Shown: positions 39,967 to 45,374, numbered from the stretch's first letter. The stretch: DNA of 64,000 nucleotides from an uncultured Nitrososphaeraceae archaeon (GCA_963779615.1 CAVZZA010000001.1:1-64000), one strand, 5' to 3'. Program-made: numbers and translations. The notes: generated by a model not told the origin, from the letters alone.

Positions 39967-40808
39967 TCACAGATCATGCTTCATCATATTAAAGAAATCC
40001 ACATCAGACATATTCTTCTTTCTTTGCAACCATTGTTCGACATCACCCCCAGCAGGATACCTCAACTTGGGGTTTTTATCAACAATCGCATCAAGTACTG
40101 CCTTTGCAACAAGTTCGGGGCCAGAGCCATTCTCAAGCATTTTACCAAGTCCATATTCCATATTTTGAAAAATTTTGGAATACGGCGAATTTGAATCTAA
40201 AGATTTTTTTGCCACAACAGAGGCATTAAAGAAATTTGTTTTGATGACCCCTGGCTCTACAAGAATTATTTTTATTCCAAATGGCTCCACCTCATACGCA
40301 AGCGATTCACTCAAACCTTCTACTGCAAACTTTGTGCTAACATAAATGGATCCCGTCGGGAAACCAAATCTCCCTGCACCAGAACTTATGTTAACTATTT
40401 TGCCTGAATTTTGATTTCTCATGATAGGCAAAACAGCTTGTGTGACCCGGATTAAACCAAAAAATTAGTCTCAAATTGTAATTTTATTTCATCCATAGAT
40501 ATATCTTCAAATGCCCCTACAAGCCCATAGCCTGCATTGTTTACCAAAACATCTATTTGTTCAGACTCAGCATAAATTGATTTTATTGCTTTATTTACAG
40601 AACTTTCATCAGTAACGTCAAGTTGCAAAATTTTCAGTTGGAGATTTTCTTTTTTGGCTACAGAGTTCAAAGACAAACCCTTTTTAGTGTCTCGCATTGT
40701 TGCATAGGTTATAAAACCATTACGTGCCAGAATCAAGGCGGTTTCATACCCTATCCCACTTGAACTGCCTGTGACTACCGAAACTTTTTTGCCAATAGAC
40801 ATATACAA
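39967..40808 (-). pseudogene. SDR oxidoreductase with a single frameshift
   Basis: TGSSSGIG and NNAG in 40452-40808; YVSTK in 39967-40431. One extra base in the A run 40459-40464 restores ETNFFGLIRVTQAVLP. Confidence 0.88.
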
Positions 40809-40913: not shown

Positions 40914-40933
40914 ATAACGCAATATTGCGTTAT
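40914..40933. promoter_or_regulatory. perfect 20-bp palindrome, candidate operator
   Basis: ATAACGCAATATTGCGTTAT, in the divergent intergenic region ~105 bp upstream of the SDR start. Confidence 0.5.
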
Positions 40934-42253: not shown

Positions 42254-42697
42254 TCAGGCCGATCTCCTCTTTCTGACTATTTTTTTTGCTTTCTGTCCAT
42301 CTAATTCCACTTCCTCATCGGCTATTGGTTTAGATAATGGGTTTAGTTTTGCCACACGCGGTATTGCCATTACAAAGTGGATGTGAAAACAGGAAAAGGA
42401 TTCACACAGGGAACAATAAAGTCTATTGTTATTGAAATGGATGTCGGCAGTTTTGTTTTCTTTAACATCCTTTATATAGATTGTATCTCTGCTACAACCA
42501 TCTTCGGATAAAAATGGAGCATAATGTTTTAAAAATTCATCCTTTTCCAGTATATCATGAAGTAGATCGTTAACAAAACCTCCAAAGTGTTCATTAACAA
42601 ATGGAGATTTCTTTTTCTCTTCCACCCATTTTGCCTTTAATTCCTTAACTAAATCTACACGCAAGGTAATCAATTCAGAACGTTTTGATCGAGGCAT
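42254..42697 (-). CDS. putative RHH-type DNA-binding protein with C-terminal CxxC-x4-CxH zinc site
   Basis: N-terminal basic arm plus strand-helix-helix pattern (SELITLRVDLVKELK...FVNDLL); YCSLCESFSCFH. Confidence 0.6.
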   Translation of the reverse strand: MPRSKRSELITLRVDLVKELKAKWVEEKKKSPFVNEHFGGFVNDLLHDILEKDEFLKHYAPFLSEDGCSRDTIYIKDVKENKTADIHFNNNRLYCSLCESFSCFHIHFVMAIPRVAKLNPLSKPIADEEVELDGQKAKKIVRKRRSA

Positions 42698-42703
42698 GTT
42701 AAA

Positions 42704-42723
42704 TAATAACTATATAGTTATTA
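42704..42723. promoter_or_regulatory. perfect 20-bp palindrome between TATA box and start of 42254-42697
   Basis: TAATAACTATATAGTTATTA; minus-strand TTATAAAT at 42735-42728; ATG at 42697. Confidence 0.6.
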
Positions 42724-42814
42724 CCATATTTATAATTATTATATATATCTTTATACAGTGAAACATTTGTATACACTGCGTAATCCATATAAACATGTTC
42801 AATAAGTTACTCTC

Positions 42815-42916
42815 ATGGATAAAAAACAGGTTAAAAAAAGAACGATGGTTTCCCCGGATCATTATCATGACATAAAGAAAAAGATCGTAAACAGCAATTC
42901 ATTTGACACAGCCTAA
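42815..42916 (+). CDS. 33-aa leader ORF of the RadA-like/PolB2 operon
   Basis: MDKKQVKKRTMVSPDHYHDIKKKIVNSNSFDTA*. TATA-like CATATAAA at 42786-42793; the next gene has GGAG at 42920-42923. Confidence 0.45.
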   Translation: MDKKQVKKRTMVSPDHYHDIKKKIVNSNSFDTA

Positions 42917-42926
42917 AAAGGAGTAG

Positions 42927-43724
42927 ATGATATTGCATTCGCCCAATAAAAAAACAAATAAAGATGCAGCATATCTCAGCAGATTCATTAGTGCGCATGA
43001 GGAACTGGCTGACAATCGCAGAAAATTATTTGGCATACCACTTATCGATGATTTTTTTCATTTCCACGAAAAAAAAAATATAAGCATCATTAACAGATGT
43101 AAAACAACAACACATCTATCGTATCACCTTGTTGCAAAATTATGTATAGAGTTTTCAAAAAACAATGGAGAAAAAAATAAAACCATATTGATAGATGGTG
43201 GTGGCAATAATTTAGGATACCTTTATGCGAAGTTGACAAAATTGTCAGTTAAAGAGCAGTTTAACATTAATCAACTATTAGACAACATGATGATATCAAG
43301 GGCATTTACATTCTATCAATTAACAAATGTCATTATAAATGAATTGCCAATCTTGATTAAAAAACTAAATGGCAAATTGCAAATAATAGTTCTAGACACA
43401 CTCAACACATTAGTAAATCCCTCAACCAGCAAAACTAAATCAAAATCAATAAAAAATGTATCAGACATTGAAGAAGACAAAATAAAATGCTTAGATGAAA
43501 TATTACAAAATATAATCAGCCTCTCAAAATATTATTTTTCAATACTTGTATTTACCGACTTTAAAAAAACATTCAATAAAAACATTTTTTCGGGTTTTGA
43601 TCATATGCTGGAGATAGTCGGTATTTATAGCAACAAAAACAAAAAGAATGAGCCAGTCCTCCATATGAAAACAGCATCCACCGAGAAGTCGCTGAAACTT
43701 GACGATGTTTTGGAAAGCGTGTAG
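42927..43724 (+). CDS. RadA/RecA-fold protein with degenerate Walker A (PolB2-associated type)
   Basis: FGIPLIDD, ILIDGGGNN, ISRAFTFYQL, IIVLD; no intact GxxxxGKT. Confidence 0.7.
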   Translation: MILHSPNKKTNKDAAYLSRFISAHEELADNRRKLFGIPLIDDFFHFHEKKNISIINRCKTTTHLSYHLVAKLCIEFSKNNGEKNKTILIDGGGNNLGYLYAKLTKLSVKEQFNINQLLDNMMISRAFTFYQLTNVIINELPILIKKLNGKLQIIVLDTLNTLVNPSTSKTKSKSIKNVSDIEEDKIKCLDEILQNIISLSKYYFSILVFTDFKKTFNKNIFSGFDHMLEIVGIYSNKNKKNEPVLHMKTASTEKSLKLDDVLESV

Positions 43725-43736
43725 GAAGGAAATACA

Positions 43737-43920
43737 TTGGGCCGAACGGTTTCGTCCTTCAGACTATGAAATGACATTGAAGAATTAGAGTGGAAACAAT
43801 TTCGAAAACATCTTTGCAGGCAGAATAAAAAATCCTTCAACAAACTATTCCCATTCCAAAATCATATTGCCATTCTTTATCCAATTCAACAAATCCGCTA
43901 ATAATTCAACCCATTTTCAT
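43737..43920 (+). pseudogene. small PolB2-partner protein, disrupted
   Basis: MGRTVSSFRL*..EELEWKQFRKHL; TGA at 43767-43769, later frameshift and truncation. Confidence 0.65.
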
Positions 43921-44082
43921 GCCCGAATTCATATCGACATAAAGACATCTTTTGTTTACAAAGAGACAGGATTAGAGGGCCTTTCTGAAGTATCAAGAAT
44001 CTGCAGGATACCTTTACAATTGCTTCAAGGGACACTCATCAATCAATTGCTTATTCTAACAGTTTTAAGGATTTTGGCTTAA
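43921..44082 (+). pseudogene. internal fragment of a family B DNA polymerase (PolB2 type)
   Basis: RIHIDIKTSFVYKETGLEGLSEVSRICRIPLQ followed by a frameshifted ASRD, matching the remembered PolB2 RIHID...GL.GL.E.SR...PLQ..SR segment. Confidence 0.62.
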
Positions 44083-44471
44083 TTGCAAAAGATTTTTCAT
44101 AAAGAGCAAGTTATGCAGAATGACAATGATAAAAAAAAATCAAATCTAAACATAGAGCCTTTTACCTACCATCCATAGGTTACAAAATATAAAATGCGTA
44201 ATTCATTATTAAAAAAGCTTTAAATTCTTTTTACCATAGTAAGTAGAGTCTTTTTAATTGTGATCGGTGATGATCATCATTATTTTTCCCAAATTACAAC
44301 AGATTGGATAATTGAATTCATTAAGTTTACTGAAGCACAATAATAGTATCAGAGCAATGGCAAAATAAAAATCAATAAATCCCAATTTATTTTATAACGG
44401 TAATTATTTATCGCGAACAAAAATAAGAAATTTTTGTTGCATTAAGAAAAACAGCATATGGTGTCATGATT

Positions 44472-45374
44472 TTAACCACCACTAGTAGTAGTAGCAGAAA
44501 GGAATTTCCTTGCTTTTTTTAACACCGATATTTCATTTTCTGTTAATGGGTTTTTACTCAACAGTTCCTTAAATTGTAGGGCATTAACAATTGCTTTACC
44601 GCCATAATGGTTATTGAAATATACAAAAACAGAATCTGCTTGTTCTTTTATTTTTTTAATCTTATTCACCCATGGAATTAGTTCACTCTCAGAATACAAA
44701 TAATCATACCAATAATGATCTCTATTGTTGTTTCTTCCATGCAATCTTATTGCAGCATGTGTATTTGTTGCAATATTATTTTCATCAGATAAAAATCCCA
44801 GGTTTTCTTTGGATGGTGAATCGGTTAATACGGATGCGATATCATAGTGACGCAACATTTCAAATGTTCCTTCAGTATTCCAGGAAGGGTGTCTGAATTC
44901 TATTGAATAACGGTTACTTTTAATGTTCTCATCCTCTACACATAACCTATCCAAAAATTTTTCAGTTTTTTCAAACTCCTTGATTGTGAAGCTTGGCGGT
45001 AACTGAATAATGATTGTTCCTAATTTATTGGTGTGTTTAAGAGGTGATATCTTGTCCAAAAATGTTAGGAATTCAGGAATTACATTTTTATCGAGATCCA
45101 ATCTTTTCTCATGAGTAATTATCTCCGGAACTTTAACCGAAAATTTAAAATTATCAGGCGTTGCCTTGGTTAGGCCTATAAACAGCCCTTGGTTCAGGCT
45201 AAGGTAAAACTCTTTATAAAAAGTGGAATCCATTTCGACAGTGTTAAAAAACTGTGAATAGTACCTCAATTTCTTGGTTTTCTTATCAGGATAAAATACA
45301 TTTAACCATCCACCTTTATCTTGTGAATCATTATAGCTCCATCCAGAACACCCTATTAAAATGCTGGAAGTCAA
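44472..45374 (-). CDS. DUF72 (YecE-like) protein
   Basis: IGCSGWSY, NTVEMDSTFY, FSVKVP..ITH, QLPPSF, EFRH.SW, RLHGRN, YFNNH. Confidence 0.93.
   Translation of the reverse strand: MTSSILIGCSGWSYNDSQDKGGWLNVFYPDKKTKKLRYYSQFFNTVEMDSTFYKEFYLSLNQGLFIGLTKATPDNFKFSVKVPEIITHEKRLDLDKNVIPEFLTFLDKISPLKHTNKLGTIIIQLPPSFTIKEFEKTEKFLDRLCVEDENIKSNRYSIEFRHPSWNTEGTFEMLRHYDIASVLTDSPSKENLGFLSDENNIATNTHAAIRLHGRNNNRDHYWYDYLYSESELIPWVNKIKKIKEQADSVFVYFNNHYGGKAIVNALQFKELLSKNPLTENEISVLKKARKFLSATTTSGG

Follow-up and report, generated by a model that had tools for sequence, protein, structure and literature searches.

The 64,000-nucleotide stretch of DNA analysed here (the window; GCA_963779615.1 CAVZZA010000001.1:1-64000), from an uncultured Nitrososphaeraceae archaeon, contains at positions 42254-45374 what is almost certainly the remnant of a PolB2 operon, the second copy of the archaeal PolB2 mutasome operon in this Nitrosocosmicus-like ammonia oxidiser and now in decay. 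Its promoter contains two tandem copies of a short palindromic box, and the gene facing it on the opposite strand encodes a 147-residue protein (reg147) with a predicted DNA-binding fold. We tentatively read the locus as a decayed PolB2 operon of which the boxes and reg147 form the switch, a reading that is plausible rather than probable. The kind of operon has been described before and is found here in decay; the conserved tandem box and the candidate regulator from an unannotated family are new.

The G+C content of the window is 34.6%, and close homologues of reg147 carry source names including 'Candidatus Nitrosocosmicus sp.'. The window belongs to a genome of 3.17 Mb (G000); genomes, loci and contigs are designated by G, L and C numbers. 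All features listed in an initial annotation of this DNA (the open reading frames (ORFs), a 20-bp palindrome, a short repeat and the DUF72 gene) were confirmed in the window at the coordinates given. Its interpretation, a DNA-damage switch composed of reg147, the palindrome and a RadA-like/PolB2 cassette, is partly supported: the cassette, the fold, the linkage and the repeat stood up, the palindrome as a conserved operator and strict synteny did not.

The PolB2 operon remnant

On the plus strand, the remnant consists of a 33-residue Lys-rich first ORF (42815-42916), a 265-residue RadA/Rad51-like protein with a degenerate Walker A motif (iRadA; 42927-43724), a PPB2 pseudogene (43737-43905) and a PolB2 fragment (43906-44052). 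At the end, convergent on the cassette, the minus strand encodes a DUF72 TIM-barrel protein (44472-45374; Pfam E=3.5e-57). Intact iRadA-PPB2-PolB2 arrays, on one strand, are present at the same place between reg147 and DUF72 in four relatives (G005, G016, G010 and G045), and the window remnants keep their order, supporting the reading of the plus-strand genes as what is left of a RadA-like/PPB2/PolB2 cassette. The same composition, iRadA-PPB2-PolB2, is that of the published PolB2 mutasome operon (passages of Makarova, Krupovic & Koonin 2014, PMC4104785; sections of Timinskas, Timinskas & Venclovas 2025, PMC11791011).

The intact arrays contain the RadA-like gene, a small gene with a product starting 'MGR(T/S)IPSFR...' and a family-B polymerase of 782-783 residues. 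The polymerases of the relatives (782-809 residues) match the Pfam model DNA_pol_B with E=3.2e-31; they keep motif A, DFVSLYPN, and read HGIVDS where active enzymes read DTD, the first aspartate being replaced. Replacement of the first DxD aspartate is usual for PolB2 according to section 3.1 of PMC11791011. The window fragment corresponds to residues 307-355 of an intact 782-residue PolB of a relative (63% identity over 49 residues, E=9.9e-15) and stops short of the DTD-equivalent motif; the segment 43921-44030, earlier assigned to PolB2, lies inside this match.

The PPB2 remnant has a TTG start and reads M-G-R-T-V-S-S-F-R, followed by a leucine and a stop codon (TGA, 43767-43769). The N-terminal MGRT motif and the residues Arg3 and Arg9, described for PPB2 in section 3.3.1 of PMC11791011, are thus present. 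Further on, one nucleotide is deleted near 43850, and the 3' end is truncated. A soil contig of about 94% identity has TTA (Leu) in place of the stop codon, plus one extra T after 43850; therefore, the stop and the frame shift are real differences from an intact relative. With the nonsense codon and the deletion in PPB2 and only 49 residues of PolB2, the window locus does not hold an open, full-length working copy.

The likeness of iRadA to RadA is weak when the 265-residue protein is searched alone (Rad51, E=0.02; RadB, E=3.7e-4; neither reaches the curated cut-off). When 22 homologues are combined in a profile and compared with the Protein Data Bank (PDB), 18 of 20 matches are to DMC1, Rad51 or RadA, the best with E=0.0019. 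At the Walker A position the sequence is IDGGGNNLG, without GK[ST]. It is the only iRadA found in this genome, which may be why its reading frame is still open.

Decay at this locus is recurrent in the clade. Fragments of PolB2 are left in G021, G019 and G018, G049 has a split PolB2, and in G009 and G023 the locus yielded no PolB2 remnant; G023 also has a frame shift in iRadA. The DUF72 gene follows the cassette in all ten close relatives of which the flank was fetched or assembled, and stands directly after reg147 in G017 and G007. Parts of reg147, iRadA and the PPB2 remnant are represented among contigs from soil metatranscriptomes, none of which spans 42739-42815; coming from RNA libraries as contigs, these show neither transcription nor transcript ends.

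The PolB2 system in the genus and family

A PolB2 of about 800 residues is present in all 34 genomes of the genus and in 81 of the 91 sampled genomes of the family, representing 14 of 14 genera (the family tally counts one unpublished genome, G077). In many genomes of the genus, iRadA-PPB2 pairs stand at loci of their own, apart from a 'core' locus with PPB2 and PolB2. The core locus of the present genome (L075; contig C5 of G000, 395710-398560) has a box promoter, a short leader ORF and a 39-residue PPB2-like ORF; its PolB2 is split into 738 and 109 residues, by a true frame shift or an assembly error. Unless the latter applies, both PolB2 copies of this genome thus look damaged. The PolB2 system of the genus is dispersed over several loci marked by the same box, the extra copies of which decay repeatedly, with the sole iRadA gene kept.

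The PPB2 proteins of the genus, with about 195-202 residues, are about twice as long as the roughly 90 residues reported for the family. Two solo PPB2 paralogues of 195-199 residues occur in G041, each directly under a zero-mismatch box (L120, 886-1485; L121, 1547-2134).

A promoter box of the PolB2 system

The box has the genus consensus TTAC(A/G)C-T-GCGTAA, a palindromic sequence of 13 bp, and is a perfect palindrome in G018, G020, G015 and G041. In the window, 3 nt separate the proximal box (ATACACTGCGTAA, 42771-42783) from the TATA box ATATAAAC, which together with the element AACATGTT occupies 42787-42799 (plus strand). Both are in conserved alignment columns; the TATA box of the cassette was assigned by its position, about 24 nt before the ATG. 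The ATG of the first ORF lies exactly 31 nt past the box. An alignment of 25 promoters reveals a weaker copy of the box 18-20 bp upstream of the proximal one, with tandem boxes 20 bp apart in the core PolB2 promoters; in the window this distal, degenerate copy (TATACAGTGAAAC, 42752-42764) is 18 bp upstream. The repeat noticed in the initial annotation, TATACAGTG (42752-42760) and TATACACTG (42770-42778), corresponds to the left halves of the two boxes.

Besides the window, 24 cassette or PolB2 promoters of relatives have the box, and genus-wide it marks the promoters of PolB2, iRadA and PPB2. A position weight matrix (PWM), built from 17 sites outside G000, was used to scan both strands of G000: the core PolB2 promoter came first with 23.5 bits and the window site second with 21.8 bits, and only four positions in the whole genome scored above 14 bits. 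Five large genomes contain 11 distinct zero-mismatch sites. Seven of these were inspected afresh; four precede iRadA or PPB2 genes and three precede a solo short leader ORF without a PolB2-system gene behind it. The remaining four are at cassettes or cassette remnants. A strict 14-mer was found in 8 of 12 other genomes of the genus (16 hits), with no hits for a control pattern. Outside the genus, the strict 14-mer was not found above background (3 of 78 genomes from 13 genera, versus 6 genomes for the reversed control), and none of 18 PolB2 loci of other genera has the box at the promoter position when up to two mismatches are allowed. In G012, G015 and G017 the box of the core promoter is degenerate, with the architecture of TATA box and AACATGTT retained. 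From this distribution, the box very likely functions as a cis-element dedicated to the PolB2 system.

Short Lys-rich ORFs of 28-47 residues, at an offset of 31-32 nt, follow 14 of 26 distinct box sites. In some loci (L053 and L120) the ATG 31 nt past the box starts iRadA or PPB2 itself, which suggests that the transcripts, including that of the cassette, are probably leaderless. The first ORFs start with sequences such as MNKKQIKEKK..., MNKPKKLIEL... and MKKIKKIIEL... (L041-L111); their products could be small basic proteins or leader peptides. Box and short Lys-rich ORF occur alone, without a cassette, in G015, G041, G011 and G048. A conserved protein of about 100 residues, with no assigned family, is encoded 200-400 bp from the solo box-plus-leader unit in G041, G015 and G012 (L116, 807-1109; L108, 1696-2028; L123, 1054-1356).

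The only other promoter-like match to the box in this genome is on contig C4 of G000 (303614-303891, minus strand), where a box-like ATACACTGCGTAA of 14.3 bits, followed by TTTATAAT, is about 25 nt before a 72-residue acidic ORF. At a locus of another genus (L090, around 2800-2955; G124), ACATGT-rich repeats (TTACATGTATGAACATGTTATAACATAC) lie upstream of the cassette and resemble an element, AACATGTTNTAACAT, located after the TATA box in Nitrosocosmicus promoters.

No regulator or promoter motif for PolB2 in Thaumarchaeota was found in the literature searched. A shared box, a short first ORF and a ribbon-helix-helix neighbour are absent from passages of PMC4104785 and from the abstract and sections 3.1 and 3.3.1 of PMC11791011. 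The polB2 neighbours named in section 3.1 of the latter are DUF72, Orc1/Cdc6, LexA and SRAP, and the main-text sections covered do not mention the family of reg147 as one.

The 147-residue protein

The reg147 gene (42254-42697, minus strand) encodes an N-terminal ribbon-helix-helix (RHH) domain, predicted at residues 3-60 or so, a beta-rich domain and a Lys/Arg-rich tail. The AlphaFold model (predicted local distance difference test score, pLDDT, of 72) has an N-terminal strand segment, helices at residues 14-30 and 38-59, and a C-terminal part of four strands and a short helix bearing the putative metal ligands. In the structure comparison, RHH domains make up about 40 of the top 50 matches and align to residues 3-60 or thereabouts, with Z-scores of 4-6.2 and root mean square deviations (rmsd) of 1.4-2.6. 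They include TraM (Z 6.2), NikR (Z 5.8, rmsd 1.4 over 46 residues), TacA, CopA, PutA, AmrZ, Arc, omega and SvtR. The possible metal site is formed by Cys95, Cys98, Cys103 and His105 (C95-x2-C98-x4-C103-x-H105). In the family, Cys95, Cys103 and His105 are invariant and position 98 is Cys, Asp or His, giving the pattern C-x2-[C/D/H]-x4-C-x-H; Asp77 and Pro61 are also conserved. The model and the comparison thus agree with the annotated RHH-like N-terminus and Cys/His site, as a predicted DNA-binding fold. RHH domains are nearly always sequence-specific regulators, and reg147 is likely to be a sequence-specific DNA-binding factor.

Modelled alone, the C-terminal domain reaches a pLDDT of 84.8. 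Against the PDB, its best match by VIA-align has a Z-score of 4.2, none reaching 5, and Foldseek gave none at E<=0.001; we do not claim a new fold for it. The full reg147 model gave no Foldseek match in the PDB at E<=0.001 either, and the family profile no meaningful match to PDB sequences (best E=0.11). No Pfam or NCBIfam family was assigned to reg147, Pfam searches up to E=1 yielding chance-level matches only. A profile of 25 relatives retrieved 1022 representative clusters at E<=0.001, mostly of 115-135 residues.

Three other identities were considered for reg147 and found no support. It is not LexA: it has no match to an S24 peptidase in Pfam or NCBIfam, and its 147 residues are composed of the RHH and Cys/His domains. 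SWIM zinc fingers have the signature C-x-C-x(n)-C-x-H, which differs from the reg147 family pattern, and no SWIM match was obtained for the window protein at E<=1 or in 78 family members at E<=0.01. For a type II antitoxin of the RHH class, a toxin gene would be expected nearby; none is immediately downstream, where a gap of 224 bp is followed by a DUF7482 gene on the other strand. In G017 and G007, the gene downstream of reg147 encodes a DUF72 protein of 296-299 residues, not a small toxin.

Linkage of reg147 to PolB2-system promoters

In the genus, four groups of reg147 can be distinguished by identity. The grouping was taken from a matrix of pairwise identities, since a maximum-likelihood tree built from 24 family members resolved little, with good support for 4 of its 20 inner branches and long branches to the outgroup. 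The A-type, comprising the window clade and G011, is 91-99% identical internally, and the H-type 82-93%. Two divergent paralogues, G017p and G007p, are 67-75% and 42-46% identical to the others, respectively. In 11 genomes iRadA has an A-type gene divergent to it, and in G018 an H-type gene is divergent to PPB2-PolB2. G017p and G007p are found in arrays of the form DUF72-reg147|iRadA-PPB2, with reg147 and DUF72 on one strand, separated by 17-34 bp. Among 18 loci of other genera, one has a family member divergent to iRadA-PPB2-PolB2. Counting these cases, PolB2-system promoters are flanked by relatives of reg147 in no fewer than four lineages of paralogues, and also in one other genus. The earlier expectation of synteny with polB2 holds as repeated linkage; strict synteny is not supported, with H-type copies found between HtrA and short-chain dehydrogenase (SDR) genes in seven genomes.

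Some unlinked copies have a box-like site of their own. In the H-type genes of G012, G020, G024 and G004, TTACRC or a full box with one mismatch is located at -82 to -88 relative to the ATG. These are 4 of 8 unlinked copies examined, versus 7.4% of AT-rich 150-bp windows; G041 shows the same upstream site. On the reg147 strand of our window, the box is at -86. In a single case, G007p, the box position opposite the gene is occupied by another palindrome (AGTATACT); the core PolB2 locus of the same genome keeps the canonical box.

In two genomes with an A-type reg147 and no cassette, a box with a leader ORF is 1.1 kb (G011; L050, 9159) and 5.6 kb (G048; L111) away; these units look like remnants of a lost cassette. 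In G057, of another genus, the family member beside a PolB2 cassette has three direct TTAACCTAA repeats upstream (L100, 9519-9817), possibly an operator distinct from the box and belonging to another subfamily.

A possible switch and alternative explanations

We propose, with some reserve, that reg147 is the best candidate for the protein that binds the box. It would bind the tandem boxes as a dimer or tetramer and, when bound, would block TFB and TBP, so repressing both its own gene and the PolB2-system promoters. It would leave the DNA when its putative metal/thiol domain senses stress; that the signal is DNA damage or oxidation is a doubtful part of the proposal. A broader version is also on the unlikely side: an unannotated Nitrososphaeria family (more than 1000 clusters at 50% identity) of transcription factors combining RHH and metal/thiol-sensor domains, of which one Nitrosocosmicus subfamily would be a LexA-like master repressor of a PolB2 regulon, acting at tandem TTACRC-T-GCGTAA boxes over the TFB recognition element (BRE) and released by Cys/His oxidation or metal loss.

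Several observations weigh against reg147 as the switch, and some of them point to an alternative that we judge rather improbable, namely that another factor reads the box and reg147 is an unrelated local or autoregulatory transcription factor, beside which cassettes were merely inserted repeatedly in a variable region. In all seven H-type contexts fetched, the gene is between an HtrA-like protease and an SDR, and in the complete genomes G012 and G015 it is about 246-248 kb from polB2. Box promoters occur without reg147 nearby (L051, L055, L078, L079 and core loci), and G003, which is 97% complete, has boxes and no reg147 match. The wider family is large and usually not beside polB2 (17 of 18 loci in other genera). 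The right half of the box overlaps the expected position of the BRE, and Thaumarchaeota have many TFB paralogues; candidate readers are such a TFB paralogue using an extended BRE, another repressor or, by analogy with Sulfolobales, a paralogue of Orc1/Cdc6. Orc1/Cdc6 genes are enriched near archaeal polB2 (PMC11791011, section 3.1). The box abuts the TATA box and could equally be an activator site. The box in the A-type reg147 promoter is not independent evidence, being the same box as that of the cassette, and the related genomes are non-independent samples. As to the fold, the tool rates RHH Z-scores of 4-6 as middling, although the matches agree strikingly, and among 78 family members no Pfam RHH model matched and no Pfam family was found in more than one member. 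On the other hand, a palindromic box in tandem copies is unusual for a BRE, reg147 recurs beside these promoters in the lineages described above, and box-like sites are located about 85 bp upstream of unlinked copies. No other regulator gene recurs beside the cassettes; an Lrp-like gene adjoins one iRadA-PPB2 locus (L055), was not found at other cassettes and was rejected as the regulator.

The initial annotation had taken a different site, the perfect 20-bp palindrome TAATAACTATATAGTTATTA (42704-42723), as the operator by which reg147 controls itself and the cassette, which now appears improbable. The palindrome is located between the TATA box and the ATG of reg147 and is unusual, since first-order Markov simulations of the window predict about 0.2 perfect palindromes with arms of at least 10 per 64 kb; the 3.17-Mb genome has 18. 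In 6 of 10 close relatives, shorter AT-rich palindromes, such as TGTATATACA, are found at this position, the others having none, and G017p has a box-like ACGC-TT-GCGTAA there. However, the 20-mer itself is present in only 1 of 11 close relatives, this genome, its arms vary although the RHH strand SELITLRV is conserved, and it is 92 bp from the start codon of the cassette, on the far side of the boxes. It was therefore rejected as a conserved operator; of the two motifs noted in that annotation, the TATACAGTG/TATACACTG repeat survives, as part of the conserved cis-element. Still further from likely is that reg147 is no transcription factor at all and instead assists the DUF72 enzyme or the PolB2 complex as a DNA-binding accessory, for example by targeting damaged DNA. 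DUF72, described as a relative of UV-damage endonucleases, is enriched near polB2 (PMC11791011, section 3.1), and the close spacing of reg147 and DUF72 on one strand in G017 and G007 would suit such a role. Against it, DUF72 in the window clade is on the other side of the cassette, with its own promoter, and no DUF72 gene is beside the H-type copies in the seven genomes with context fetched. The general character of RHH domains as sequence-specific regulators also speaks for a transcription factor.

Other features of the window

A second perfect 20-bp palindrome, ATAACGCAATATTGCGTTAT, is located at 40914-40933, about 106 bp upstream of a split dehydrogenase gene. Its half-site, TAACGC, resembles the half-site of the box, TTACGC; allowing up to three mismatches, this palindrome was not found in any fetched relative locus. 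The short-chain dehydrogenase gene (39967-40808, minus strand) is split into ORFs of 154 and 118 residues, and its orthologue in G010 is a single ORF of 279 residues (L046, 4787-5626); it is either a pseudogene or affected by an assembly indel.

Comparison with known systems

The locus bears on how error-prone DNA synthesis is switched on in archaea outside Sulfolobales and haloarchaea. In a major group of soil nitrifiers, PolB2, iRadA and PPB2 promoters have a well-delimited, operator-like box nearly to themselves, and with one named candidate binder the control of the PolB2 system becomes open to direct experiment. If reg147 is a master repressor, ammonia-oxidising archaea would have their first defined switch for DNA damage or stress.

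The locus resembles the PolB2 mutasome operon, as characterised in the parts of PMC4104785 and PMC11791011 cited above, in its gene order, the lost first aspartate of DxD (in the polymerases of the relatives), the degenerate P-loop of iRadA, the MGRT arm and the DUF72 neighbour. It differs in that the window copy is a remnant, the genus has separate core PPB2-PolB2 and iRadA-PPB2 loci, and PPB2 is long, at about 195-202 residues.

Archaea in general are not known to have a LexA-type SOS system. The arrangement nevertheless recalls the LexA/SOS systems of bacterial PolB2 operons with lexA and of imuA-imuB-dnaE2: a palindromic site is found at the promoter of an error-prone polymerase, and the gene of the candidate regulator is beside its target, with a site in its own upstream region. 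Unlike LexA, reg147 has no S24 peptidase domain and no apparent mechanism for RecA-stimulated cleavage. In its predicted structure it resembles NikR-type regulators, sharing an N-terminal RHH domain, a C-terminal cluster of candidate metal ligands and a palindromic DNA site; in contrast to NikR, its C-terminal domain has no PDB match at the thresholds used (VIA-align Z >=5, Foldseek E<=0.001) and its ligand pattern, C-x2-[C/D/H]-x4-C-x-H, is different. The DNA-damage regulon of Sulfolobales, with Orc1-2 and TFB3, is a further parallel, in which an archaeal Dpo2/PolB2 is controlled without LexA through a short promoter motif, as may be the case here. The Sulfolobales motif is ANTTTC, the protein classes are other than that of reg147, and the box described here does not exceed background in the 13 other genera searched.

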